Assembly: GCA_002269645.1 (NCBI GenBank)
Contig: NIVC01000084.1
Coordinates: 1,054,001-1,118,000, forward strand
Reading direction: 5' to 3'
Source: Macrostomum lignano
Lineage: Eukaryota
DNA: 64,000 nucleotides
The notes beneath the pieces were generated by a model. It had not been told where the DNA came from. It searched no databases and worked only from the letters and a program-made list of their open reading frames with translations. Shown piece by piece: positions 12,127 through 47,945 of this stretch (position 1 is its first letter; each line of letters opens with the position of its first letter). The position numbers were made by a program, and so were the translations under genes.

Positions 12127-12684
12127 CGACTTGTCCTATTAATAGTTACTGCGAGTCTGAAGCTGCGTCCGTTTGAAAAATTTGATTTAAAGCAGACCAA
12201 ACAGAAGCTACAGACCAGAAACCGGTTTTGCAAACTATTCCTAAGCCGACCAACAATGCTAAAGACAATTTATTCAAACGCAAAAATCCAACTTTATCCA
12301 GCAGGAAAACTAACTATATATGGCTGTAAATCAAATTCTCAGATAGTTTCAGTTTTACGATTTATCAACGATACTATTAATTGTGTAGATTTTGATTCAG
12401 TAAAAATTCAGAGCAGTACCTATGTCGGCTTTATTGGTCATCTTTGGCCAAAATTCGGTTTCTCTAGTCTAAAAAGATATGCAGGCTACTATTCGAATTA
12501 TCTGGTTGGATACGATGCAGAAAATTTCCCACAAGCAGTTTCTGTTAGATCAAAATCAAAACCAAGACTTTTTTGTAACATATTTTTTTCGAAAAAGTTT
12601 GTTATTATGGGCGTTCAAAACACTCATGAATTGAATAATATTCTTAACCATGTCAAGGATTTTTTAATCTCTGTTAATAACTAA
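12127..12684 (+). CDS. Divergent TATA-binding protein (TBP)-like protein, ~185 aa two-repeat core
   Basis: AKIQLYPAGKLTIYGCKS matches TBP TALIFSSGKMVCTGAKS; VKIQSSTYV matches FKIQNMVG; YDAENFPQ...KPRLFCNIFFSKKFVIMG matches YEPELFPG...KPRIVLLIFVSGKVVLTG. The frame is open 43 codons upstream of ATG 12256 (LLIVTASLKL..FDLKQ matches NIVSTVNL..LDLK), back to the acceptor at 12125-12126. Confidence 0.85.
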   Translation, partial: RLVLLIVTASLKLRPFEKFDLKQTKQKLQTRNRFCKLFLSRPTMLKTIYSNAKIQLYPAGKLTIYGCKSNSQIVSVLRFINDTINCVDFDSVKIQSSTYVGFIGHLWPKFGFSSLKRYAGYYSNYLVGYDAENFPQAVSVRSKSKPRLFCNIFFSKKFVIMGVQNTHELNNILNHVKDFLISVNN

Positions 12685-12912
12685 ACTTAACAAGTAAACA
12701 GTTGCTGTCAAATCGCAGTTGCGATGCATTATTTTACAAACATTTTGTCTTGTTTTCATTTCTTTACCAATTGTTTTCTCTAATAGTAAACGTGCCAGCT
12801 ATAACCCAATCTAACTAACCAAATCATCATTTTTCTTACAGCCGCAAATGACAAACCGGATCATCTATTAATATTATGCTCGATACGCTCGTTGTCGAGC
12901 TAGGTGCACACA

Positions 12913-13619
12913 ATGCCGCGTGCACAATGTCAAATCTGCAGAAAAAAGTTCAGCAATCAAGCTGAGCTGCATGCTCACTCGCATGGTGATTGTTTTTCGC
13001 CGGAACGATTACTGGTCGGATCACTGCAAAACCTGATCGAAAACCCACCAGATGGATGGTCCATCACTTTGCGCGAGTCAGCTCATCGTGGTCGGGTAAA
13101 TTTTGTCGAATTTACTCCCACTCTTGAACAACAAGACAGCAGCTCTGGCGAGTTACTTCCTGGCGAGTTGATTGCGTCTTTAAGAGGACTAATATTTAAA
13201 ATATTGGAAAAAATTGGCTCACCTAGTTTATTAATAAGAGTCTGCTTTCACTTGAAAGTGACACTTTTTCGACCGAAAGCAGCAGCAGACGACAACGATG
13301 GCTCGAGCAGCGAAGAAATCATCTCGGTCTATTTTAATACCAACATTGCGACAATATCATTTGATGAGACGATTGCAAACAGTGACATGCTGTTATCTCC
13401 CGAGGCCTACAATGACTGGTTCGCACGCGTTATTAATCAGCTATTAACAAAAATAGACAATTTTCAATCTCGAGGCAGTAATTGGCAATATAGAGCAATC
13501 GAGCAGCTAGACTTGATGCTCTGCATTTATCGCAAAAGCCATGCAACCACACTGTTAACAAATACGTCCCACGATGGTGTGGGAGCGGCGGCGGGGGTGG
13601 TGGTGGTGGTGGTGGTGGT

Positions 13620-13657
<38 letters not shown>

Positions 13658-16600
13658 GCGCGGCGAGTCCGGTCCAGTCCGGTCCGGTCCAGTCCGGTCC
13701 GGTCCGATTAAACAGCGAGCGTTTAAAGTTCCACTCTCAATCGGGCGCAAAGCTGGAGCAGTACTGCTTCTAAAGCCGCACAGAGCAAATCAGTACGACT
13801 GTTTTCGCTACTCAATATTGGCGAGTATATTTCATCCTTGTGTGCAAGATGCGAAAAGGAAAGACAGCTATGTGCAATGGATGAGAGAATTTAATTTTGG
13901 TCGACAAGCTAATGGACCAGCTCGCCATTCAAGTAGATCGTACAAAAAATTCTGCCGACGCAATCCGAGAGTTAGTCTACGAGTATTTGTGTGGGATCAC
14001 GACACCAAGACGAGCACATTATTTTACTCGCACAGAAGCAAATATGATGGCGATCGTTATTTTGCGAGCTGTCTGTTTGTGCCGCGGTATGACGATTTTG
14101 AATTTGGTCATTATTTACCAATTCGCAATTTGAACCGGTTATTGAGCAAGCGAGGTAAACAGCGACGATATTGTCCGGAGTGCACGGCTTCGTTTCCTTG
14201 CTCAACTTCGTGGGACTATATTCTCAAGGAGCATTGCTGTGAAGGTGGTAACGTGTCATCATCATCAGCTTCTAATATTGAATGGAGTTCGGATTTTGTG
14301 CCTCAAATCCGCGAGATTCGCCATCGACCACAAGAAGTAATGCCGAAACCAGAAGACGCAATTTTAAAATTTAAATCACACGAGGCAAAACTGCCTTCGT
14401 TGTATGTCTTGTACGCAGACATGGAATGTCTATGTGCACCTGCAAATAATGAAGCAAATGTAAAAAAGACTTGTAATTCGAAGCCGCTTGAAGTCCACGT
14501 ACCAATTTGTTTGGCCTATCGTCTGATAACTTGCCAAGGTTTGCAACTGACACCAAAACTAGCTGCAGCAGTTGGAATGGGCGACAAAAAACCTTGTGGA
14601 GTAATTTACTCGCAAAAAGATGGTGAGAATTGTGTTCGACTGTTTTTACGCAAACTTCAGACCATTGCCAGCGAGATTTGTCTGCATGCTCAGACTGAGA
14701 CGTTTACTCCCTTGCTACGTGAATATCTCAATATTAAATCCAACAAGAAGCTTCAGCAGACTTGCCAACTATGCAAGCGAGTATTTGACAAGACTGAAAA
14801 AACTGTGCTGGACCATTGTCACTTGACTGGTTTGCCTCGTGGCATAGTTTGCGTCTCGTGTAATCGAAAGTTAAGTTTAAAACGATACCGATTGATTGTC
14901 TACTTTCACAATTTGGCTGCCTACGATGGTAAATTTCTTGTGCGAGAGATTTACAACGTGTTTTCTGGAAACAGTGTTCAACTAAGCGTGCTACCAGAGA
15001 CTCGTGAACGCTTCAAGACGTTTTCGCTAAAGTTTACATTGCCAAGTAATCAACACAAGAATGGCTTTGTGCGGTTTGAGATTTGTTTCAAGGATACTTT
15101 TGCCTATTTATCGACAAGTTTGGCTACTCTAGCCGATCGACTGCTTCCCGAGCAACTAGTGCATACAAAAGAGTTGTTAAAAACGTATCCAAAGTTGGAG
15201 CTGGCAACTCTACGACAAAAGGGAATCTATCCCTACTCTTTTTTGGACTGCGAGGAAAAATTGGACAATGTGACACAGTTACCGCCGAAGGAGAATTTTT
15301 TCAACAAGCTTACAATGTCGCACTGCACGGAAGAAGATTATGGTCGAGCTTGTGTAGCTTGGAATCAGTTCGAGTGTCAAAATCTTCGAGATTATACAAC
15401 AGCCTATTTGTTGCTTGATGTACTGCTGCTATGCGACGTCTTTGAAAATTTTCGTCAGACTGCGCTGCGTGAATATGGTCTCGATCCGACTCACTTTTTG
15501 GGTGCACCGATGTTTAGCATGGTAGCCTGCCTGTTGCGGGTAGACGAGCCAATAAAATTGTTTACCGACGCATCTATGTATGCCGAAGTTGAGTCCTCCA
15601 TTCGAGGCGGTTTCAGTTTTGGAACGCGACATGTAACGACGGCCAATAACCCGAGTGTAGCAGAGTACAGAAGCGAGTTTGATCGACTTGATCCGGACTT
15701 TGAAAGCTTGCGAAAAAATGCACCATATGGAACTTATCTAGCATACTTGGACGCTAATTCGCTCTACTCAAGCTGCATGATTCAACCTTTACCAGTTGGC
15801 GATTTTTTATGGCTATCACGCGATGAAATTGGGAACATTCCAACCGATAGTGCGAGTGCAGACTATTTGGAAAGCCCAAGTGTTAAAAGTCAACTATTGG
15901 ATTGGTTAGACAAGTTTTGTAACGACGAACAAGGAGCAATGTTCACTGTGGATCTATATTATCCTCGCTTCTTGCATGACTCGACAGCAGATCTTCCGCT
16001 TGCAATTGGTCACGAATTAGTTGGCGAAGACCGACTTAGTGAACAGATGAAACTGGACTGGTTTTGCCTTCAAAGAGAACTCAATCCAGATCGTTTTGAA
16101 AACGCAACAAGCTATGGTGATGTGAAAGCTTTCAGCAGCTCGACGCGAAAATTGATTGGGTCTGTGCTTCACAAAAAGAAGTATGTTGTGCATCATCGAG
16201 CTCTTCGATTGTATCTAGAATTGGGAATGCGCGTAACGCGTGTTTACCGCGTAATTCGATTTACAGAACGACCAATTTTGCGATACTATATTGAACACAA
16301 TATTGAGCGGCGTAAAGTAGCAAAAACTGAATTCGAACGCGACTTTTTCAAGTTGCTAAATAATGCTCTTTTCGGAAAGTTTCTGCAACGAGTTCGCGAT
16401 CGACTCAATTTCCGCATGTGTTCAGAAGCTGAAAAATTGGAGAAATATGTTTCTCGAGAAGATTTTCTTGACGTAGTAATTTATAATGAAAGTCTGGCAG
16501 GAGTTAGCCTCGCTCCACGTCGTGTTGCGCTAGACAAACCGATTATAATCGGTGCTGCAATCTTAGACATTGCAAAGACTCTTGTATACGACTTTTATTA

Positions 16601-17149
16601 CAATCATGTTCAGATTCATCATTCACTAGCAAGTGCTCGGGTACTCGCAGGAGATACTGATAGTCTTATGCTGGCTCTAGTTATGCGTAAACCGGACGAG
16701 ACTCCTTACGATACCTTGTTCAAAGATTTGGCAGAAGAAGGTTTGCTAGACACGAGTAACTATTCACCATCGCATGCTCTGTACTCGACAAAGCACAAGG
16801 GTCGACTTTTGGCGTGGAAAGACGAGTTTAAAGGTTGTATACCACTGGAACTGGTATTTTTGCGACCAAAAATTACTCCTTCGTGTATGCCAATGGAACT
16901 ATAGATCAAGTCTCGCGCTGCAAAGGTGTCTGCAAGACTGTAGCACAAAGTTTAAAGCATCAAGACTATTTGAGAGTTTTGCACAAGCGACAACTTGTGT
17001 TTTCGCGCATGCAGTCGATTCGTTCTAGAAAACAGAAAGTTTTTTTAATGCAACAAAGAAAACTTGCACTAAGTTTTTTCGACACGAAGCGATCTTGGAC
17101 AGACTGCATCGATTCGCTGCCCTTTGGTCACTGGCGCTTGACCAATTAA
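12913..17149 (+). CDS. polB: Protein-primed family B DNA polymerase with N-terminal C2H2 finger and Endonuclease VII insert; two frameshifts (~13530-13705 and ~16870)
   Basis: NFQSRGSNW; YDCFRYSILASIFHP; VLYADMEC; CQLC..VLDHCHLTG..RG..C..CN; FHNLAAYDGK; KGIYPYS; YLDANSLYS; KLLNNALFGK; AGDTDS; LRPK/NYS...KGV continues in ORF 16835..17149. Confidence 0.97.
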
Positions 17150-17442
17150 CAATATGCTCTGATCTCTTTTGTTGTACAAAGTATAAATAGCATGCTATAG
17201 AAGACTGTAAGCCATCAATAGTTTTTTCATTGATCATAATTTTACAATAAATAAATGGTGCGTGCATTCATTTAATCTATAATTTTAGCACTTTTTTGTG
17301 CTTAATTATTTGAAAGAGTATAATTTTTTATAGTTAGATTCGTATGACTAGGTTGTAGTGACCGTAAATGTAATTGCTAACGCTCATGTTTCAAGGAAAA
17401 AACTTTTTTAAACTTTCAGCTACAATTGAATCGACAACATGA

Positions 17443-17918
17443 ATGCCGAGCAGCAGCAACAACAACAAGCAGCAGCAGTACCAACTTTTAGTGGAACGCC
17501 TGTACGAATCGGCAACAATTCCGGCCCGAAAAACTGTCGGCTCGATTGGTTACGATCTTTGCGCAGGCGTTGATGGCACTATTCCAGCCTACGAGTCCCG
17601 CAGTGTACGAACCGGACTTAAAGTCCGGTTACCGGCTGGTACGTATGGCAGGATTGCGGCCCGAGCATGGCTCTGCGCGGTATCTTTGTTGGCGGTGGCG
17701 TAATCGACCCCGACTATACAGGGGAAATCTGTATAGTTTTATTCAACTACAGCTCGGAGGATTTTGATTACTACGCCGGGCTAAGTATCGCGCAACTCGT
17801 TCTTGAGCAGGCTGTGCTTGCTTCAGTCTATGCGATTGAAGCCGATAACTCCATTCGGAAGATTGAGCCGCCGACCAAGCGGCGCGGTTTTGGCGGCTTT
17901 GGAAGCACTGGTCAATAA
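17443..17918 (+). CDS. dut: Trimeric dUTPase (one frameshift near 17662)
   Basis: Motifs GSIGYDL, GRIAAR, GGVIDPDYTGEI, IAQLVLE and RGFGGFGSTG split over ORFs 17443..17703 and 17667..17918. Confidence 0.93.
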
Positions 17919-17983
17919 TAATGATAATGATAATAAACTGATTTTTTTTTATTTGGTGATTGGGCACTATGCCTTGTAAATGC

Positions 17984-17992
17984 TATAAGCAA
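17984..17992 (+). promoter_or_regulatory. TATAAGCAA motif upstream of PLA2X
   Basis: 60 nt before ATG 18044; the same motif recurs before other structural-module genes. Confidence 0.6.
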
Positions 17993-18043
17993 TTTTAAAA
18001 TTTATGCCAAAAAAAAAATATATATATATATATATGTTGTAAA

Positions 18044-18463
18044 ATGTCTCCAGCGAAAGATCGAGGTTTTAAAAAGAAAAAGAAGAGCAGTCGTATAAAG
18101 AAGAAATCTATTAGAAAGATTAATAAAAAGCAACAAGGTTTTGGTGTCGTAAATTGGTTAATTAATCATTTACCATTTGAAGCGCATTTACCCGGCGGAT
18201 ATCAGTTTTGTGGTCCAGGTACGCAACTGCAAGCTAGGCTAGCAAAAGGACAACGAGGAATCAATCGACTTGACAATTTGTGCATGCTTCACGACGTGGC
18301 CTATGATAAAAATTCGGACGTGCAAGAGAGATTAAAAGCTGATAAGCTATTAGAATCTGGTGCACGAGAAATTGCCCACGATCCGTCTACTGGTTGGAAA
18401 GAAAAACTAGCTGCGAAGTTGGTTACCAAGGTTATGCAAGTTAAGCAACGCTTTGGTGCTTGA
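18044..18463 (+). CDS. Parvovirus-type phospholipase A2 (PLA2X) with basic N-terminus
   Basis: YQFCGPGT Ca-binding loop and LDNLCMLHDVAY catalytic HD motif. Confidence 0.9.
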   Translation: MSPAKDRGFKKKKKSSRIKKKSIRKINKKQQGFGVVNWLINHLPFEAHLPGGYQFCGPGTQLQARLAKGQRGINRLDNLCMLHDVAYDKNSDVQERLKADKLLESGAREIAHDPSTGWKEKLAAKLVTKVMQVKQRFGA

Positions 18464-18465
18464 AA

Positions 18466-19154
18466 ATGCAGCAGCCATACAATATGCAACTAGCTCACGA
18501 TTCTACATTTATTATTGCTGGACCTTCAAACTCGGGTAAAACTGAATGGACGTTGCGTTTGTTGACTGAACGAAAAGAATTATTTGATGAAAAACCGCGT
18601 CGTCTTGTTTGGTGTCATGGATCAAGTTTGAAACCAGACGATCAACAACGAATTAGAACATGCTGGCAAAAGAGCGGTCTTGACCCTATTGTTTTGTACC
18701 CGAATTCATACCACAGATGATTAATCGTTTTTTACCACACGATTTGGTTGTTGTTGACGACTTGCAAAGCGAGATTGCTAAGTTGCCAGAATTTACTAGT
18801 ATGTTTACAAAGCATGCGCATCATATCCCTTTGACTTGTCTGTATCTTTGTCAAGGTCTTTTTAACAAGTCTGATCCCGAAGCACGCATGCGAAGTTTAT
18901 CAGCTAGTTATATTTGTCTAACTCGTAGTGTGCGCGATCGAACCACAGTTGAGCATCTCGGTCGACAAATGTATCCGCGTAATAGTAGGTTTCTAGTGAA
19001 TGTGTATGAAGACGCAACAAATAACAAACCTTTTTCATATTTATTCATTGACCTGCGACAAATGACACCCGATTTTTTACGATTGAGAACAGGAATCTTT
19101 CCTGGCGATGAGCAAGTTGTCTATACTCGTGAATGTGATGCAAAGTTTGTGTAA
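18466..19154 (+). CDS. A32/FtsK-like genome packaging ATPase (one frameshift near 18700)
   Basis: Walker A GPSNSGKT, Walker B LVVVDDLQ, then FTKHAHH, LGRQMYP and FSYLFIDL. Confidence 0.93.
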
Positions 19155-19160
19155 TATTAT

Positions 19161-19169
19161 TATAAGCAA
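19161..19169 (+). promoter_or_regulatory. TATAAGCAA motif upstream of the minor capsid gene
   Basis: Lies right after the ATPase stop, 51 nt before ATG 19212. Confidence 0.6.
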
Positions 19170-19211
19170 ATTATAAACTGTTGTCAATATTAGTTTGTGT
19201 TTTATTTCAAA

Positions 19212-20198
19212 ATGAGTTTTTACGTTTTTTTGCCGTCAAACGATATCAGTTACGAAACCAACTCGCCTAATGAATTTCGAGTACGACTAACTGAACCAAT
19301 AAATTTATTGAACGGATTCTTCGAGGTTGCACTAGTTGAATTACTTTGCCATGGAGCAATTACGACCCCAAATGCTCATCGTGAGCGTCGATTTGAAGTT
19401 CCATATTTTGCGGACATTGACTCAATAATACGATTAAAGAAAAACTATTGGGGTCGCGTTTGGGCAGAGGCAGACTTGGATGCTTACGTTTCCTGGCAAC
19501 CGTCTGTACAAATGAAAAATTTGCCTGGCTTTTACGAAATTCAGGCGAAAAAACTATTGGATTAGAACTACCGGTTACATTTATGGACGCTTTCAAATTT
19601 GACTCTTGGAAGAAACTTTCTGGACTTGTCTCGGAAAAATTATCAAAACCTACGCTGGTAGTGTACAACCACGGATGGATCATACTTGGATGTGGTAAAA
19701 AGTCTCGACAATACTCTAGCGCTAGTACCTGAGAACTATTATGTTTTTTATTGTGTTCTATCGCCTGGTGAAGCTATACGACTTGTTTCGCATGGAGACT
19801 ATCTTCAAAAAACGGAAGGAGAAGTGTACATCAAATTACACCAATATTGGTTGAGAAATCGTATTTGGCGCATTAACAAAACCTACTTGGATGCTGTGCT
19901 ACCTTCTCCGATGCCTAGTAAAACGGTTTACATGTACTGTTACACAGACATAATCGAGTATCAAGCAGTGGGAAGTACATCAGTACCGTTGCTTCGAGTT
20001 GTGGAACTCCAACAAAAGAAAAATGGAGAACTTGTACGCGATAGCAGTGCATTGCAAACACCCTACTACTTGAAAACAAATCGACAACAAATTCACGAGA
20101 TTTCGATTCGACTATCGGACCAGCGCGGAAAACCATTTAATTTTCATCCGGGAGCACACGTTGTTGTCGTACTGCATTTTAGACACAGGTCAGACTAA
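19212..20198 (+). CDS. Minor capsid (penton-like) protein (two compensating frameshifts)
   Basis: N-terminal SFYVFLPSN..NEFRVRL..EVALVEL and C-terminal YCYTDIIEYQAVG..VPLLRVV...VVLHFR, typical of Polinton pentons; the middle is in ORF 19448..19732. Confidence 0.85.
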
Positions 20199-20200
20199 TT

Positions 20201-20209
20201 TATAAGCAA
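20201..20209 (+). promoter_or_regulatory. TATAAGCAA motif upstream of ORF 20256
   Basis: Lies right after the penton stop, 55 nt before the ATG. Confidence 0.6.
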
Positions 20210-20255
20210 AGATTAATGTGTAAAAAGAAAATTTTGTGAATTTTTTTTTGTAAGA

Positions 20256-20618
20256 ATGAACGAACTAACAGAAAAAGGAAAACGAAATGCTCGCTCATTG
20301 TGTCAGTGTGCTTTTTTACTACAAATTGTTTATCGGCTAAAGCATCCAAAGCAGAGAAAAAGTTTTTTACAAACACTTTCAGAGTCGGAGATACGATGTC
20401 TAGTAGACTTTCTGTTTAATATTATTAGTGGACGTATTAAAATTAGTAACTGTAACAAAAGACGACTTGAGAAGCATCGCAGATATATACGTCAGCTTTT
20501 GGAACAGAAGACTCCAATTACTGCAAAAAGGAAAATACTTGTCCAACACGGAGGATTTTTACCTTTTTTGGCTCCAATTATTGCCGCTCTACCTGCTATA
20601 AGCACTGCGCTTGGATAA
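20256..20618 (+). CDS. Conserved Polinton small basic virion/core protein with a QHGG|FLP protease-site-like motif
   Basis: ILVQHGGFLPFLAPII resembles the QxGG-FL motif of Polinton core proteins and adenain cleavage sites. Confidence 0.7.
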   Translation: MNELTEKGKRNARSLCQCAFLLQIVYRLKHPKQRKSFLQTLSESEIRCLVDFLFNIISGRIKISNCNKRRLEKHRRYIRQLLEQKTPITAKRKILVQHGGFLPFLAPIIAALPAISTALG

Positions 20619-20691
20619 CGTCTGGAGTAGTTGGTACCGCCGCGGGAGCAGCAAATTTAATACGATCAATTCAACGAAAGTAGTAGGAATA

Positions 20692-21380
20692 ATGCGAGCC
20701 AAGGAGAGTAGTAGTTTTCAACGAATGTATCTAGTACCTGAATCTGTGTATCAATCTACATGTCAAGGAGCAGAACAAGGTTCGTCACCAGCTGCTGAGG
20801 TACCTCGAAAAACTGAAGTTTTAGACGCACCGCAAGATGGTCTGGCAAAAAATATGGTGGAAATGAGAGAACAAATGGATAACTTGGACAAGGAAATGGA
20901 GAAGGAGCCAAATTACACAGCTCAATTGAAACGAAGCAGATTGGAAGACAAACTTTTAAAATTACGCAAAGTCTATCGCACTGGAGACGAGGACAATCTG
21001 CCACTTGTTCGCAAAGGGACTAATGTAAGAAGCTCATATGCCAGAGAATCAAGGGAAATTCCTAAAGTTTTTTACCACGTTTCGAAGCTCTCGCTCAAAA
21101 CCTATTTTCGGACATGGACAAGAATGCAGAACCAATGCTGGCTAATTTGACTGATGGCGAGATACAAGATCTCATGGAATATGTTGTTCGAGACAGACCG
21201 CTTAAGCGACACGAGACTCAACCACCTAGTGGACTAAAAACATTTTTAGACTTTCTTCGAAAACGTGGAATCGCAGCAAACCAAATCGGGCGTCATGTAC
21301 GAAACGAGCTAATGCATGCTCCAAAAACTGTTGCAAAGGAGGATCTTAGTCTGTTTGAAAATTATCAAACACTGGCTTAA
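20692..21380 (+). CDS. Conserved Polinton hypothetical protein (one frameshift near 21105)
   Basis: RMYLVPE start motif and helical body in ORF 20611..21150, continuing into ORF 21114..21380. Confidence 0.6.
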
Positions 21381-21417
21381 TTTGTTTTAAATGTTTTAAC
21401 AAAATTGATTCGAGCAC

Positions 21418-21424
21418 TATAAGC
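21418..21424 (+). promoter_or_regulatory. TATAAGC motif upstream of the small ORF and integrase
   Basis: Lies in the intergenic spacer, 61 nt before ATG 21479. Confidence 0.55.
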
Positions 21425-21478
21425 TTTTTAAAAAGGTTAATTTTGTTTATGAAAATATATAGTTTAATAAGACAAACC

Positions 21479-21667
21479 ATGTCATCTATCTGCCAAAAAC
21501 TTTTGATTCGTCTCTGTGAGTTTTTTTGCTTAAAATCCGAATGTGTGCCGTTTCTGGGAGAGGAGCACAACGAGGATACTGACGGAAATTCGATCGAGGC
21601 TTCGTTCTTTTGTTGCAATTGGCATACGAATAGCATCAATCTAACTCATGATGAAGCGAGTGCGTAA
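21479..21667 (+). CDS. Small Cys-containing ORF (62 aa) overlapping the integrase start
   Basis: The ATG sits at the same spacing from TATAAGC as in other genes; no recognisable homology. Confidence 0.35.
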   Translation: MSSICQKLLIRLCEFFCLKSECVPFLGEEHNEDTDGNSIEASFFCCNWHTNSINLTHDEASA

Positions 21668-22808
21668 GGAAATTGAAGAATTTTTGACGGATGCTTTTTT
21701 TAACTTGAACAAACCTACTTCATTTAGTGGTAACAAGACTATACTTGTTCGTGAAGTGCGTAAAAAGTTTCCACAGATTACGAACAAAGTTGCGAAGCGC
21801 GAAGTTGATAATTGGGTGCGATCAACAAATGAGCATCATTTATTTCGAAAAACACGACGAAACTTTCCAACTCCAAAAATTAGTGTACCACCAGTTGCAA
21901 AGTTTCAGTTTCAAATCGATTTGGCAGATTTACCTCGATACAAGACGGAAAATCGAGGTTATCGTTACATACTTGTTCTGATTGACTGTTTTACTAGAGT
22001 TGTACGACTAAGACCATTGCGTACAAAGAAGCCTTCAGAAGTTAGTCAAGTATTACTAGAGATTTTTCGAAGTGGTTTTAAGCCTGTTTATTTACAAGGT
22101 GATGCTGGTATGGAGTTTCTCGGAAGAGCTACACGTCAAATGCTGAAACAGGAAGGAGTTCGATTTTTTGTTAGCCAAAGCAATTACAAGGCAAGCATGG
22201 CTGAACGATTTATCCGCTCGCTAAAGGAGCGTCTATTACGATACTTTCGAGCAAAAAATTTACCTCGATGGTTTGATATTTTGCCACAATTGGAAGATAA
22301 TTTCAACTCTAGTCCTCATCGATCCTTGAGTGGAGAAACACCAAAACGTGTAGAGACAGACCCACATTTACAAGGAATTTTGTGGGACAAAATGTTTGCG
22401 AAGTCGTACACTAAAAAGAATGAGAATAAATTTAAAGTTGGTGATTGGGTTAGAATTACACGACGTCGAGGAACATTTGAAAAAGGATACACTACGAGTT
22501 GGAGTAATTCAAAATATCGCATTCACCGTGTACACTTGACAGAACCGCCAATGTACGAATTAGCGGACCCTGAAGATGGATTTGAAGTGCTGAAAGGAAG
22601 GTTTAACCAAGCGGAACTAATGTTGGTAAACGAGACAGATGAAACACCTAATGAAATTGAAAAAGTTATTGAAACTGATCGATCGAAAAATGGAAGTCGT
22701 CTGTATCTAGTAAAATGGAAAGGTATGCCAATCTCAAGAAGTCAGTGGTTAAACGAAAAGGATCTTGACGCAAAGACTGCTAAACTATTTTCTAAAGTGT
22801 ATAAGTAA
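21648..22808 (+). CDS. Retroviral-like DDE integrase with C-terminal chromodomain
   Basis: FQIDLADL, YILVLIDCFTR, LQGDAGMEF, KASMAERFIRSLKERL; chromodomain IEKVI...YLVKWKG...SQW; intact ORF. Confidence 0.97.
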   Translation: MMKRVRKEIEEFLTDAFFNLNKPTSFSGNKTILVREVRKKFPQITNKVAKREVDNWVRSTNEHHLFRKTRRNFPTPKISVPPVAKFQFQIDLADLPRYKTENRGYRYILVLIDCFTRVVRLRPLRTKKPSEVSQVLLEIFRSGFKPVYLQGDAGMEFLGRATRQMLKQEGVRFFVSQSNYKASMAERFIRSLKERLLRYFRAKNLPRWFDILPQLEDNFNSSPHRSLSGETPKRVETDPHLQGILWDKMFAKSYTKKNENKFKVGDWVRITRRRGTFEKGYTTSWSNSKYRIHRVHLTEPPMYELADPEDGFEVLKGRFNQAELMLVNETDETPNEIEKVIETDRSKNGSRLYLVKWKGMPISRSQWLNEKDLDAKTAKLFSKVYK

Positions 22809-22849
22809 CACATGAATTGGGATTGCATGACGATGAGAAGACTGTTGAA

Positions 22850-23308
22850 ATGGATCCTATTTTTGCTTTTTATTCTGGTCCGAATAGATCTGCTGAAGGT
22901 GGAGGTGGATCTGGCATTCCTGTTTACGAAGGTTACGGTTTTTTGTCAAATTTGGCGGACAGATTGGTGTATCCTGTACTACGCAACGCAAAGAAAGATT
23001 TCTTGGATCGTGGTCTGGAGTATTTGAAAAGTGCGACAGCAAAAATTGGTATGGGTCGGAAGCGTCACTTGGACACAGAATCGAGCGAAGAGATGTTTAA
23101 TACACCTGCAGTCTCGAGACCAAAGCGAAGGAAAAGAACCAGTGGAGTGGCTATAAGCTTAGGAAAGAAGAAACGACAAAAGAAACGACGAACAAGACAG
23201 TGTGGAAAAGGACGCGTGAACAAACGAAAACGCAAGAGGGTAGGTGGTAAAAGAAAACGTCGAACTGCTACTGCAAGCAAGAAACTTTTTAGTCTGTTTG
23301 AAAAGTAG
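22850..23308 (+). CDS. Arg/Lys-rich core (DNA-condensing) protein upstream of the MCP
   Basis: GSGIPVYEGYGFL motif followed by a long basic tract; conserved position before the MCP in Polintons. Confidence 0.7.
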   Translation: MDPIFAFYSGPNRSAEGGGGSGIPVYEGYGFLSNLADRLVYPVLRNAKKDFLDRGLEYLKSATAKIGMGRKRHLDTESSEEMFNTPAVSRPKRRKRTSGVAISLGKKKRQKKRRTRQCGKGRVNKRKRKRVGGKRKRRTATASKKLFSLFEK

Positions 23309-23309
23309 C

Positions 23310-24632
23310 ATGAATCATTTGCTTGGACCTGATATTGCTGCTCTTAAAAGTGAATTGTCGCTATTTGATCAAAGTCCTGTTCAGTTTAGTGTTTTGGATA
23401 ATCGGTATACTAACATTCAACCGCAACATGGTATTACAAAAGGATCACCTATCGAATTTGAGGTTGTGCCTGCAGGCGATTTGTATTTGGATCTACAAGA
23501 AACTGTGCTCACGGTATGCTTCAGCGTTAGTGATAGTGAAGGTGAACCTATAGATGCAACAAAAAATTTTGTTTGTTTGAATAATTTGGCTATTGGAACA
23601 TTGTTTGAAGACGTTCAATTTACTATTGGCGATACTGTAGTTGAAGGTGGTAGTTTTATGTATCCATACAAGGCTATGCTTCTTACATTACTGGAATACG
23701 GACATACAGCTCAGAAGGCTGGTTTACTACCGTGGGGATTTTACAAGGATACAGCTGGTAAAATGAATGCAACAAGTGAAAACGATGGACGAACAAAGAG
23801 GCAGGCGCTTATTGCTAACAATAGGCGGTGCACTGTATCGGGGCCGTTATTCTTGGATTTGTTTCGTCAGCCTCGGTATCTACTATCAAAGACACCACTG
23901 CGGATCAAGCTCATACCGGCAAAAAGTAAATTTGTCCTGAGCGGGTCAACATTAGAAGCTGGTGCGGTATTAAAAGACTATGAGATCAAGTTTTTGCGTG
24001 CAGAACTACGATTGCGGTTTGTTCAACCCTCGCCGAGTGTTATCAGTGCACATGCTCATGGACTTAAAAGTCACAATGCATTATATCCGCACCGAAGTCT
24101 AAGCCTTGGTACGTTTACTATACCCCGAGGATCGTCTAGCCATACGCATGAAAATTTGTTTCCTAGTGGAGTACCACGGCTTTTATTGATGGCAATCGTA
24201 AGCAACAAGGCATTCAATGGAAGCATGGACACTAATCCGTTCAACTTTGAGCATGCAAATGTGAGCAGCATTGGTGTGTTTGTGAATGGAGACTCGGTAC
24301 CATCGCGTCCGCTGCAGACAAACTTTGGAGATGATTGTGTGACAGAGTATAATTTTTTGCTACAACAGCTTGGAATCTATCTACAGGGACGAGATATTGG
24401 ATTTAATATGCTGGATTACGGTAATGGTTACTCAATTTTTGCATTCAGTCTTGGAAGTGAACCTGGTGTCGGACGAGGAGTGCAACTGTATAAGGAAGGA
24501 AATGTAAAACTAGAGTTACGCTTCAATGCTGCAACTAGTACCGTGTACAACGTCATATTTGGAGGTATATTTGACAAGCAACTGCAACTGACTGAACTTC
24601 GCGACATTGTTCCTGGCACAGTATGGAAGTAA
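23310..24632 (+). CDS. Major capsid protein (double jelly-roll)
   Basis: KSELSLF..P.Q, PIEFEV, YLDLQET, GPLFLDLFRQPRYL and NPFNFEH; intact ORF. Confidence 0.95.
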   Translation: MNHLLGPDIAALKSELSLFDQSPVQFSVLDNRYTNIQPQHGITKGSPIEFEVVPAGDLYLDLQETVLTVCFSVSDSEGEPIDATKNFVCLNNLAIGTLFEDVQFTIGDTVVEGGSFMYPYKAMLLTLLEYGHTAQKAGLLPWGFYKDTAGKMNATSENDGRTKRQALIANNRRCTVSGPLFLDLFRQPRYLLSKTPLRIKLIPAKSKFVLSGSTLEAGAVLKDYEIKFLRAELRLRFVQPSPSVISAHAHGLKSHNALYPHRSLSLGTFTIPRGSSSHTHENLFPSGVPRLLLMAIVSNKAFNGSMDTNPFNFEHANVSSIGVFVNGDSVPSRPLQTNFGDDCVTEYNFLLQQLGIYLQGRDIGFNMLDYGNGYSIFAFSLGSEPGVGRGVQLYKEGNVKLELRFNAATSTVYNVIFGGIFDKQLQLTELRDIVPGTVWK

Positions 24633-25186
24633 TTGATTCTATCCTAGATCGTGGAGTAACAGATCGCTTCCTTCGCAATGTTGTATCGAAATTGTGCGCA
24701 CATTTTTTAAATGTTGTATTTCTTGGTGTTTTTCCTCAAAACTTTGTTGGTGGACTTAGACGCTTACCTTTAGACGGTAAAGACTATTTTTTTATCGTTA
24801 ATACTGACGTCTCTAACCTGCCCGGAAAACATTGGGTATGCGTTTGGGTTTATGGTCATCGAGCAGGTCGCGGTAGCAAACGACTTGGTGAATATTTTGA
24901 TTCTCTTGGTCTAGTACCATTGCCAAGAATAGCAAAATGGCTAGGAAAAGAATGTGGAAATTCGAAAAATTGGTGTTATAGTCGCTTTGCTATCCAAGAC
25001 CCGCAGAGTGGAAGTTGTGGATTTTGGGTAATTTTTTATATTTTTCATAAGTTGACTACCAGAGGAAACCTAGAGTGTTTTATTCGAAGCGTTTTTAAAC
25101 GGAATATAATTCGCACTGGTTCGTTTCGATACTTGTATGGTAAATTACGCAATTTTGTTTTACGAGTGCTGCCTCAATATTTGTAA
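24623..25186 (+). CDS. Adenain-like (C5) cysteine maturation protease
   Basis: FLGVFP, IVNTD...GKHWV, YFDSLG, Q...SGSCG; intact ORF. Confidence 0.95.
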   Translation: MEVIDSILDRGVTDRFLRNVVSKLCAHFLNVVFLGVFPQNFVGGLRRLPLDGKDYFFIVNTDVSNLPGKHWVCVWVYGHRAGRGSKRLGEYFDSLGLVPLPRIAKWLGKECGNSKNWCYSRFAIQDPQSGSCGFWVIFYIFHKLTTRGNLECFIRSVFKRNIIRTGSFRYLYGKLRNFVLRVLPQYL

Positions 25187-25422: not shown

Positions 25423-25526
25423 TGCGTGCACGGCAAATTTCAGACTCTGCCATTTTTTTGGGCCTGTACTTACTATGTATTTCGCCATAAGGAAATCGGC
25501 TTTGTGTCAAAAAAACGTATACTACT
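25423..25526 (-). repeat. Right terminal inverted repeat
   Basis: Ends ...ACGTATACTACT; inverted copy of 5945-6048. Confidence 0.97.
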
Positions 25527-25629
25527 GACATCGGCAGAAGACGCTGACTCCAGCTGCTGGCCCCGAGGAGCCGGACTGGGCGAGCGTGGCCGACTGCCTT
25601 CAGCAGGAGGTGAAGGACGTTGAGAAGCT
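25527..25629 (+). pseudogene. Exon-like GC-rich segment abutting the right TIR, apparently truncated
   Basis: Open frame HRQKTLTPAAGPEEPDWASVADCLQQEVKDVEK ends at a GTGAGT donor (25630); no acceptor or ATG before the TIR. Confidence 0.45.
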
Positions 25630-30127: not shown

Positions 30128-34434
<4,307 letters not shown>

Positions 34435-45766: not shown

Positions 45767-47945
45767 CAAGGACTACTTAAGTATCGTTTATAGAAGGACG
45801 CTGCACTCGCGGTTCGTGTAATTTTTTTTGAAGGCCAATTTTCGCCGAAAAATACATTAACGAGATACAAAAAATTCACGATTTTCATCTTCAATGGCTT
45901 GCTCAGACTGACTACAACCCTGCTGAAAAGAAAAAACTGCTGAAACTTATCAAAAAGACCTAGTGTATTCGCTCCTCTATTGTATTTCGCCAAGTTAGTG
46001 TCCTTGACACGTTTACTTTTAAATACTTCGTATTTTTTCGAGGGTTTTCAATTCTGTAATGTTAAATGTTAAAGGTTGGATTAAAGTGTTAGTTTCTCTC
46101 AATAATCAGTAGTTTCTTTAGCATTCTATGATGACTGCTTTCTATGTCTTTATTTTTTTGGTAAATTTAAATTAGCTATAGACATTCTATATTAAATGTT
46201 AGTCTATACCCTGGCTATGCCTGATATATAATAATATCTAGGGCCTACTATGCTTTTTTAGCATGTTCTACAAAAATGTTGTGTAGAAAGGACCTACTGA
46301 TTAGTTTATGAGTAGATCGTTATAAAGTATTATTCTTAATTTGAAGGTAGATAGATATTAGATACTTGCATATTGTATAGAAGGTACTAATTTTACTATT
46401 CTGTCAAATATCTGTAGATTAGGCTTCTTAAACGGTTCTACTGGATACAAAAGTTCTATTTTCAGACTTGTCTTGAAACTTTATATTTTATTTAAATGAT
46501 AGGCCTAACAACATATTGAATTTATTTCTGCTGTTTGGAGAGCAGTTTTTTAACCTAGTCTAGTTTAATGGAACCAAGATATATTCAATACTCAGGCCTT
46601 GCATTGAATTTAAAATATAAATATTTATATATAGAAAGTGATTCTAAAGGAAAATGCGTATAATAGACTTTAGAAGACAAATTTTCAACTTTAGTAATAC
46701 TATTGAAGTGATTTAGTATAGAATTGATTATATTGGCCTGTTGGGATAAAAGCAATACAGTATTGTAGCAATTTTTTTACTAGATATAATGTATAGAAGC
46801 TGTATATATTTCTTTTTGTTAGCTTCAGAATTTCTGCAATGCCAATGAAATGCTGTCTTCCAAAGTGTACAAGTAACTACAAATCTGGTGAGAAGGTGAC
46901 AGTGTATAGCTTTCCAAAGGATAAAGAAGACTACAGCATGTGGATCCGAGCTTTGCCACCAAATGTTAAGGTATGGTGCTATTGCTGCTATTGCATATTC
47001 TTGTCTTGCTTAATTCACATGCTAATGGAACATTAGTACAATATGATATAATACTTACTGTTTTAGAGTCCATCTAAATACATGGGCATTTGCCAAAAAC
47101 ATTGGCCAACAAATGCACCAATGTTAAAGGTCAAGCGATTCATGCGCCCTATGGACCCACCAAGTGTATTCCCAAATCTTCCAACAGGCATGTAATTTGA
47201 CCCATAGTCCATGGTTGTCCATGTTTTATACAGACCCAATTCACATTCACGTCATTGAATATGCTTATGCTTTCATAAGTTGGTTTATGCATCTGTTGCT
47301 GCTTTCATAAGTTGGTTTCTGCATTTTACTGCTGTTGCCTACCCAATAGTTGCCACAGTTTCTATACACTATACACTATACACAGTCTTATATTTGCAGC
47401 CTTACATACATATTTGCCTTACTGTAGCTATCAATTGAGATTAAAGTACAATGAGCTGCTGTGCAACAAGCAACCAGTTCAGTTCAACATTTTTTGTTTC
47501 CAGTCCAATAACGATACATCGATTGTTATCAGCACTGGCATTGTGCCAGTTTCTCTGCTTTTGCTCTTTGTTATTTTATTGTTGAAAAGATCAGGGATGG
47601 CTTTTGAAAAGTACAGACTGACGGGCTTCGTTCTTTGTTAATCTCATCTCATTTTAATTGGATTACATTAGCTCAATTGTCGGAATTATCCTTTAAATAT
47701 CCTAGCTTTATTGTTCTATAATAAAGAAGGGGGTAACAGTACCTTGCTGTACATTTCTCGCGAATACATGTAGTTGCAGCCGAAACTGTTCACTCATCTA
47801 AAAGAGGAATAAATTCTGAGCAACCCCGTGAAAAAACTAGACCTCTACATGCAACCATTTAAAAATAACAGCATTTTGAAAAATGGCCTTCAAAAAAATC
47901 CACACCATTCGGGAGTGCAGCGTCCTTCTACTTAAGTAGTCCTTG
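45767..47945 (+). mobile_element. Non-autonomous P-element-superfamily-like DNA transposon (2179 bp)
   Basis: TIRs CAAGGACTACTTAAGTA(+indel)...GAAGGACGCTGCACTC; 8-bp TSD TGCACACA at 45759-45766 and 47946-47953; carries a THAP ORF. Confidence 0.88.
46839..47195 (+). CDS. Spliced THAP-domain-only protein (exons 46839-46970, 47067-47195; ~86 aa)
   Basis: CCLPKC..YSFPKD..W..AL / ICQKHW...PPSVF (C2CH THAP signature); phase-0 GT-AG intron. Confidence 0.8.

Follow-up and report, generated by a model that had tools for sequence, protein, structure and literature searches.

The DNA analyzed here (the window) is a 64,000-nucleotide stretch of the Macrostomum lignano genome (GenBank assembly GCA_002269645.1, contig NIVC01000084.1, positions 1,054,001 to 1,118,000 of the forward strand), and all coordinates below refer to it. 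The assembly totals 764 Mb, and histone, GPCR, and ankyrin genes agree with an animal source. Inside the window lies a 19.6-kb element bounded by terminal inverted repeats. These repeats, a protein-primed DNA polymerase B, and a retroviral-type integrase are all present and identify the element as a Maverick/Polinton. The left part of the element (the replication block) holds a frame for a TATA-binding protein (TBP)-like protein, the protein-primed polymerase, and a dUTPase. The right part (the virion block) encodes PLA2X, an ATPase, a putative penton, a pX-like open reading frame (ORF), two unknown ORFs, the integrase, a basic core ORF, a putative major capsid protein, and a protease. Several of these genes are broken into pieces in the window copy. 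A sequence-only reading of the window had noted a recurrent variant TATA word, TATAAG(C), before the genes of the right part and had proposed that it is a target of the TBP encoded by the element. The comparisons described here indicate that the word is a real, conserved promoter-type motif and a variant of a known viral strategy, with a putative link between the TBP-like protein and the box.

Conservation of a variant TATA box in the virion block

The word TATAAGC is found at 17984, 19161, 20201, 20597, 21418, and 23152, with TATAAGT at 22800, TATAAGG at 24489, and GATAAGC at 18341; all nine coordinates and every spacing reported earlier were exact when they were re-checked. Fewer than one TATAAGC had been expected by chance, and shuffles of the 7.3-kb virion block (17920-25186) that preserved 2-, 3-, and 4-mers bear this out with means of 0.35-0.38 versus the 6 seen (600 shuffles per set; 0/600 reached 6 in each). 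The replication half had been described as free of the motif, and TATAAG is indeed absent from the plus strand of 5941-17919, with a single minus-strand copy at 8224. TATAAGC ranks second to third among the 16,384 heptamers in the virion block, below a (TA)n run, and its excess there has a Poisson p of ~2e-6, or ~0.04 when corrected for all heptamers. This excess is local to the virion block, as the whole window contains 7 copies versus a chance mean of 7.3; two TATAAG words lie in the host flank (2159 and 3108). The motif count of this one window alone is suggestive, not decisive, and the strong evidence for the motif is its conservation.

At least four further families with the same gene order were found in the genome, with capsid identities of 81, 74, 70, and 67% (96 of 473 candidates scored), and these are grouped with the family of the window as clade A. 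The DNA of the other families can be aligned to the window only partly, at 64-68%. All TATAW words located 38-170 nt before ten starts were surveyed in one element per family (50 windows); four of the small-gene starts were picked after the region had been viewed, and those slots were not blind. Conservation in other family copies had been named as a test of the motif, and TATA(A/T)G was found in 29 of 30 slots across the five families: 5/5 families each for PLA2X, penton, PX, the small ORF, and capsid, and 4/5 for core. The 29 occupied slots consist of 27 TATAAG and 2 TATATG. The sites in the window are as follows.

17984..17990, plus strand: box TATAAGC, 60 nt upstream of the PLA2X ATG (18044); 5/5 families, one with TATATGC; spacing 42-68 nt
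19161..19167, plus strand: box TATAAGC, 51 nt upstream of the putative penton ATG (19212); 5/5 families; spacing 43-54 nt
20201..20207, plus strand: box TATAAGC, 55 nt upstream of the PX-like ORF (20256); 5/5 families; spacing 43-86 nt
21418..21424, plus strand: box TATAAGC, 61 nt upstream of the small ORF (homologous ATG 21479); 5/5 families, one with TATATGC; spacing 48-61 nt
22800..22806, plus strand: box TATAAGT, 50 nt upstream of the basic core ORF (22850); 4/5 families, the fifth with TTTAAGT; spacing 46-51 nt
23152..23158, plus strand: box TATAAGC within the core ORF, 158 nt upstream of the putative capsid ATG (23310); 5/5 families; spacing 124-165 nt
18341..18347, plus strand: GATAAGC inside PLA2X; not conserved
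20597..20603, plus strand: TATAAGC inside the PX-like ORF (Ala-Ile-Ser); 1/5 families
24489..24495, plus strand: TATAAGG in Tyr-Lys-Glu codons of the capsid gene; site before the protease in 3/5 families

The motif had been placed upstream of each gene of the block. This holds for the six conserved sites (17984, 19161, 20201, 21418, 22800, and 23152) and is not supported for 18341, 20597, and 24489. A box before the ATPase, ORF20692, and the protease is present in just 1, 1, and 3 of the 5 families, respectively; the one before the ATPase is at a different position from 18341, and the site before the protease consists of two codons, Tyr-Lys, which are written TAC AAA and TAT AAA in the other two families. 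The 24489 site is thus probably a coding coincidence, and the 20597 site is probably family-specific and coincidental. TATA(A/T)G does not occur directly before the integrase in any of the five families. The small ORF (ATG 21479) overlaps the integrase start, and the box at 22800 doubles as the last Tyr-Lys-stop codons of the integrase.

The canonical RNA polymerase II (Pol II) TATA consensus is given as TATAWAWN in PMC1636458, and the clade-A box departs from it in that 36 of the 43 TATAW words found ahead of virion-block starts have G in place of the A at position 6. Among 32 sites, the seventh base is C in 27 and T in 5, and A stands at position 8 in 24 and at position 9 in 25. The flanks are nearly information-free; the base preceding the box is C or G in 17/32 sites and A in 2/32. 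The consensus derived from these sites is TATAWGYAA, or TATA(A/T)G(C/T)AA. The box before the capsid gene is read T-ATA-AGC within the core ORF and is unchanged in 5/5 families, while, for invariant capsid and integrase residues, the five families share one codon at 0/10 Ile, 4/89 six-fold, 2/119 four-fold, and 16/139 two-fold positions. Because the codons of the capsid box are kept despite saturated synonymous sites, the constraint acts on the DNA.

The spacing from box to ATG is 42-68 nt in 23/30 sites and 86-165 nt in the rest, with a minimum of 42, which fits an element at the TATA position ~30 nt before the transcription start. TATAAGC is within the top six heptamers of every clade-A family taken separately. 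Additionally, the variant (when not preceded by TA) occurs 38 times in sense versus 5 times in antisense in 37,072 nt of virion blocks, and once in sense and twice in antisense in 34,949 nt of replication blocks. The positions of AATAAA between virion-block genes vary among the families. In its conservation and its strand and block bias, the motif behaves like a DNA-level, strand-specific core-promoter element of the virion block, and we consider it very probable that the conserved boxes act as promoters.

The replication block, the TBP-like protein, and neighboring features

The replication block contains the following features.

10605..10612, plus strand: canonical TATA box TATAAATA that heads the replication unit
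10691..11917, plus strand: first replication-block gene, two exons with an intron at ~10999-11088; its look-alikes in Atlas are unnamed viral proteins
12127..12684, plus strand: TBP-like open frame, 185 aa (PF00352, E 2e-7), starting directly after a polypyrimidine-AG acceptor-like site
12913..16904, plus strand: protein-primed DNA polymerase B region (PF03175, E 4.6e-20), fragmented in the window copy
17443..17918, plus strand: dUTPase in two frames (PF00692), with AATAAA at ~17932

In 6/6 elements from five families, the first replication gene has a canonical box (TATAAATA, TATAAAAG, TATAAAAT, or TATATAAG) ahead of it. A GT..AG intron joining 10997 to 11088 is seen in contigs of 2/4 runs, and its donor GT and acceptor AG are visible in 5/5 elements. 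The four runs consist of contigs, guessed to be RNA, that span intergenic DNA too and are uninformative on starts, strand, and level; none of the listed runs with matches to the element is recorded as RNA. Acceptor-like sites also precede the polymerase. The replication genes had been assigned TATA words at 10605, 12800, and 17319. The first of these is the canonical box of all six elements; the other two belong to genes that stand behind splice-acceptor-like sites and are probably not separate early promoters. The replication block looks like one spliced unit behind a single canonical TATA box. None of the 6 joints listed in the runs is a GT..AG joint in the virion block, which is weak evidence. 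One run contained a joint from 11872 to 12105 that was rejected: it starts with GT and ends 22 nt short of the TBP acceptor, and a like donor is not evident in the other families.

The earlier statement that the element encodes a TBP was confirmed by Pfam, a structural model, and Foldseek, all of which identify a two-repeat TBP fold. The AlphaFold2 model, built from an alignment of 11 rows with host TBP and TRF among them, is a two-repeat saddle with a pLDDT of 95.7 and a pTM of 0.83. Its top PDB matches in Foldseek are TBPs (E 1.6e-9, TM ~0.7, ~20% identity). In Atlas, its features score 0.97 to viral TBP clusters with a recognition score under the mark of the tool. The protein is retained in all five clade-A families, with 32-43% identity among them and 18-20% to host TBP. 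The TBP homology starts exactly after the polypyrimidine-AG in all five families (5/6 elements), and the first ATG of the frame in the window is at 12256, mid-repeat. No RNA-polymerase family was matched by the scanned ORFs of the element in Pfam.

The residues on the DNA face were assigned by alignment and are numbered as in yeast TBP. F190 and F207 are kept in 5/5 families, and all five have Tyr at F116, Pro at F99, Gln at L114, Asn at L205, and S/T at N159. According to this alignment, the clade-A protein departs from the canonical DNA-contact set of TBP, including two base-facing Leu positions. A yeast TBP mutant, L114F, reportedly accepts TATAAG, which serves as a lead only.

Several side observations were made in and around the replication block. 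In the left arm upstream of the 10605 promoter, degenerate arrays of 28-38-nt repeats lie at 9290-10010 and 6560-6870 and are possible enhancers or origins. Two short leftward ORFs (8387-8940, minus strand) face away from the replication unit, and one has a hydrophobic stretch. Between the TBP-like gene and the polymerase (12684-12913 in the window), other clade-A families (L063, L064, and L067) have an extra ORF that the window family lacks; in L063, the only one tested, it is a deoxynucleoside kinase (PF01712, E 4e-19). The polymerase is a single long frame in other clade-A families. Many near-identical copies have a TBP-to-capsid distance of ~7.9-8.8 kb versus 11.05 kb, and a joint in two runs omits 3162 nt of the polymerase region (13786-16949); taken together, these point to a shared internal deletion there.

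The remaining features of the element are given below.

5941..6048, plus strand: left terminal inverted repeat, 108 nt, 95% complementary to 25423-25530
25423..25530, minus strand: right terminal inverted repeat, partner of 5941-6048
21648..22808, plus strand: retroviral-type integrase with a chromodomain (PF00665, E 5e-8; PF00385)
23310..24632, plus strand: putative major capsid protein, labeled from its size, position, and conservation; 66-100% identity within the clade
24623..25186, plus strand: adenovirus-like cysteine protease (Peptidase_C5, E 0.03, under the cut-off)

The element ends in AGTAGT...ACTACT. A 6-bp target-site duplication is a feature of Mavericks/Polintons; in the window copy, the flanks are unlike each other by eye. 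The packaging ATPase matches Pox_A32 (E 0.002-0.004) and the PX-like ORF at 20256 matches Adeno_PX (E 4.7e-5), both under the cut-off. The capsid and penton ORFs gave zero Pfam or PDB sequence matches, and both labels are putative, assigned from size, position, and conservation. Elsewhere in the window, a 2.1-kb AT-rich stretch between 53-nt inverted repeats (45791-47930; 85%) is likely a non-autonomous DNA transposon, and an unbroken 1273-aa ORF of the long interspersed nuclear element (LINE) type at 30613-34434 carries an endonuclease, a reverse transcriptase, and an RNase H.

Boxes and TBP-like genes in other Maverick clades

The genome holds many more TBP-like copies at the least (Pfam search, 150 of 330 candidates scored). 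In clade B (L089-L100 and L073-L081), the integrase is ~33% identical to that of the window and 77-95% identical within the clade. The TBP-like gene of clade B is different from that of clade A and is located at the end of the virion block. The gene heading these elements resembles PC4 (PF02229, E 8e-5, a match under the cut-off), and their polymerase is encoded on the opposite strand. When all heptamers were ranked in an unbiased scan, TTAAGAA came first in 4/5 clade-B elements and second in the remaining one. Each clade-B element has 5-7 sense copies of YTTAAGAA, versus 0-1 in clade A, and TATAWGY occurs 0-1 times in clade B. YTTAAGAA is found mostly 33-79 nt before the integrase, penton, ATPase, PX, and TBP-like genes; at the core gene it lies 148 nt upstream and at the capsid gene, where it is present, 102-109 nt upstream. 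Clades A and B differ in both the box and the TBP-like protein, which fits cognate pairs.

Clade D (L051-L062) consists of ~12-kb elements with 450-660-nt inverted repeats and no polymerase match. A canonical TATAAATA lies 34-72 nt before PX, penton, core, and capsid in 2/2 elements tabulated, and this textbook TATA box at equivalent places is the best indirect sign of promoters there. The TBP-like frame of clade D is weak, much reduced, and without an ATG (Pfam E 3.6e-4, under the cut-off, in 1/3 tested). The use of clade D as a TBP-less control was abandoned, as a profile of TBP-like proteins matched the frame in 6/6 elements (E 6e-7 to 7e-4). The head genes of clades B and D carry a canonical TATATAAG or TATAAAAG.

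Other loci were noted during this survey. One clade-D element has a Fic-domain gene (L055:3045-3536), and a clade-B polymerase region contains a 24-nt tandem array with TATAAGCC (L073:2712-3456). Further TBP-like elements (L085:1689-2285, with the gene behind TATAAAAG; L095:7312-9494; L083-L084) represent at least one more clade. A metagenome Maverick (L152:5400-11900) has canonical-looking boxes (TATATAAC and TATAAAGA) before some virion genes; no TBP-like match was found in the examined part, and 2.2 kb of the contig lies outside that part. In viral contigs, neither the capsid protein nor an alignment of it found a match, a word search for the TBP-like protein found none, and the phage collection gave none. 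Metagenomes yielded 4 distant loci at 29-33% identity, and a full profile search yielded 4 close TBP-like proteins without DNA context.

Candidate reader of the box and the alternatives

The late promoters of beta- and gammaherpesviruses contain a TATT(WAA) box that is read by a viral TBP-like protein, BcRF1 in Epstein-Barr virus (EBV) and ORF24 of KSHV (Kaposi's sarcoma-associated herpesvirus) and of murine gammaherpesvirus 68 (MHV68), in the viral preinitiation complex (vPIC) (PMC4893493, PMC7498053, PMC6541308). Like these viruses, the element has a variant TATA box on its structural genes and a canonical one on its putative early genes (38 versus 1 sense sites of the variant in virion and replication blocks), it encodes a distant TBP-fold protein, and its promoters look minimal. 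Unlike them, it belongs to another lineage, is a 19.6-kb integrated element, and uses the box TATAWGYAA. The TBP-like domain of the element is a bare two-repeat frame of ~185 aa, whereas herpesvirus ORF24 is described as having a Pol II-binding N-terminal domain and five partners. Herpesvirus transcription-factor families were not matched by any ORF of the element and none appears by name in the top 50 viral fold matches. With another box and no vPIC homologue seen, the likeness would be one of working alike and not one of membership.

The element shares terminal inverted repeats, protein-primed polymerase B, integrase, PLA2X, and, from matches under the cut-off, a putative A32-like ATPase, adenain-like protease, and pX-like protein with the adintovirus-type Mavericks/Polintons described by Starrett et al. 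(PMC8502044). A figure legend on related viruses in that paper lists a TBP-like gene; the word 'promoter' is absent from its main text and no motif is tied to TBP there. A look-up of terms in PMC11161782, 10.1101/2023.08.22.554363, and PMC11296320 returned no text on TBP or promoters. The Polinton-like virus PgVV-14T and virophages borrow promoters with the motif AAAATTGA from a giant helper virus (10.1101/2022.07.28.501842). The element resembles these in that a short motif stands ahead of single genes, all of them oriented alike. It is unlike them in that their motif is that of the helper, while the element splices and carries a candidate reader itself. The literature covered, with most subscription journals and supplements outside its scope, gave no description of a promoter motif of this kind for animal Mavericks; promoter motifs were found there only for helper-dependent virophages and Polinton-like viruses.

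It is proposed that TATA(A/T)G(C/T)AA is the core-promoter box of the clade-A virion and integration genes and that it would occupy the TATA position of short, gene-by-gene Pol II promoters. Host TBP would first fire the single canonical TATA box heading the replication unit, and splicing of this unit would yield the polymerase along with the TBP-like protein and accessory proteins. Next, the TBP-like protein would activate about six internal promoters of the virion block, reading the box instead of, or far better than, host TBP. The genes without a box (ATPase, ORF20692, and protease) would probably be transcribed from the transcript of the upstream gene. We infer an early/late order of the two blocks. 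That the boxes are per-gene core promoters read by the TBP-like protein of the element, by analogy with the TATT promoters of beta- and gammaherpesviruses, is the reading that we favor by a modest degree of confidence.

Host promoters served as a control for the box. Among 41 upstream regions of histone and HSP20 genes, which are paralogues and not independent, 30 have a TATA word, 8 have none, and 3 gave no start. The host words sit 75-135 nt before the ATG, and G is in the sixth place in 0/30 in the first register. An A-to-G change at the second TATA position is reported to abolish binding by wild-type TBP (PMC1636458). As 17/32 boxes of the element are preceded by C or G, this effect makes it unlikely that those 17 are read as TATATAAG.

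A number of observations weigh against reading by the TBP-like protein. Six of the 30 host boxes read TATATAAG, in which a TATAAG is embedded two bases in, and wild-type TBP has been crystallized on the G(-26) and C(-25) TATA variants (PDB 1QN5 and 1QN3). Two dUTPase genes carry the box or its canonical form (TATATAAG in one family and TATAAGT in another). A strong initiator signal is absent, with A just mildly raised at +29 to +31, and the depletion of upstream ATGs has a p of 0.28, 0.09, or 2e-4 according to the cut-off. The TBP-like frame has no ATG before the first repeat, and an exon to supply the start codon was not found. The TBP-like gene of clade B is within the virion block behind its own box, and clade D has a TBP-like frame yet a canonical box; both misfit a simple early-factor model. 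Three clades are too few for a test of co-evolution. EBV BcRF1 is reported to bind TATA and TATT alike in vitro (PMC4893493), so even in the herpesvirus precedent TBP alone may not give the specificity.

The main rival explanation is that the boxes are promoters read by host TBP/TFIID, with G at position 6 making a weak TATA that is silent until it receives help from DNA replication, an activator of viral origin, or the TBP-like protein in a cofactor or decoy role. The structures of wild-type TBP with the two variants are compatible with this, and the penton and PX sites read NTTATAAG, a single change from the host-common TATATAAG. Canonical-looking boxes at like positions in clade D and the metagenome Maverick also indicate that gene-by-gene TATA promoters need no variant. 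However, five families whose synonymous sites are saturated almost never show the canonical A in place of the G at position 6, the YTTAAGAA of clade B is un-TATA-like at positions 1-2, and the TBP-like genes retained by clades A and B both have changes on the DNA face that are fixed within the clade. We regard reading by host TBP as unlikely, although it deserves serious consideration. The word could instead be an RNA-level or other DNA signal, such as one for 3'-end formation, trans-splicing of the closely packed genes, packaging, or a core-protein site, as 4/6 conserved sites are at or just past the stop of the upstream gene and AATAAA is not conserved between virion genes. This is improbable: the capsid site is ~150 nt inside the core gene, the PLA2X site is beyond the dUTPase AATAAA, the spacing follows the next ATG, and a textbook TATAAATA occupies the matching places in clade D.

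The sequence-only reading had pointed to the TAAG core of baculovirus late promoters, within which transcription starts. The TAAG core is common to clades A and B, and the RNA polymerase of a co-infecting large virus could start inside it as in a baculovirus-like or helper-virus late promoter. Baculovirus polymerase is reported to recognize TAAG (PMC4893493), and helper promoter motifs are used by virophages and a Polinton-like virus (10.1101/2022.07.28.501842). However, the analogy is weak: 2/29 occupied slots are TATATG and lack TAAG, TAAG is absent from clade D, clade A shows no variation in the 5' TA, and all sites are at least 42 nt from the ATG. Baculovirus late promoters need a viral RNA polymerase, while the splicing of the element points to the nucleus and its scanned ORFs have no RNA-polymerase family match. 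A baculovirus-like or helper-virus promoter is slightly more improbable still than an RNA-level signal. Chance or a by-product of codon use would fit the window-wide count, which equals expectation, and the location of 20597, 22800, 23152, and 24489 within codons. The intergenic sites are nevertheless conserved amid unalignable flanks in five families, and TATAAGC is a top-six heptamer in each. Chance accounts for 18341, 20597, and 24489 only and is refuted for the six conserved sites; as a general explanation it has almost no probability.

Returning to the reading of the boxes by the TBP-like protein, it is tentatively suggested, at somewhat less than even confidence, that each co-resident Maverick clade runs a private promoter code. 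Each code would consist of a clade-specific TBP-like protein and its box (TATAWGYAA in A and YTTAAGAA in B), giving orthogonal programs of virion genes and a viral-TBP late transcription that arose independently of herpesviruses, with the polymerase-less clade D carrying a host-readable TATAAATA. If true, these would be natural pairs of TBP and TATA box with altered specificity, and the three clades in one genome would form a built-in cross-specificity matrix. Late transcription by a viral TBP would then extend beyond herpesviruses and provide natural TBP variants with changed sequence preference. With a conserved box and a candidate reader encoded by the element, the activation of Maverick capsid genes becomes directly testable, which bears on how integrated Mavericks activate these genes and on whether they have a viral cycle of their own.

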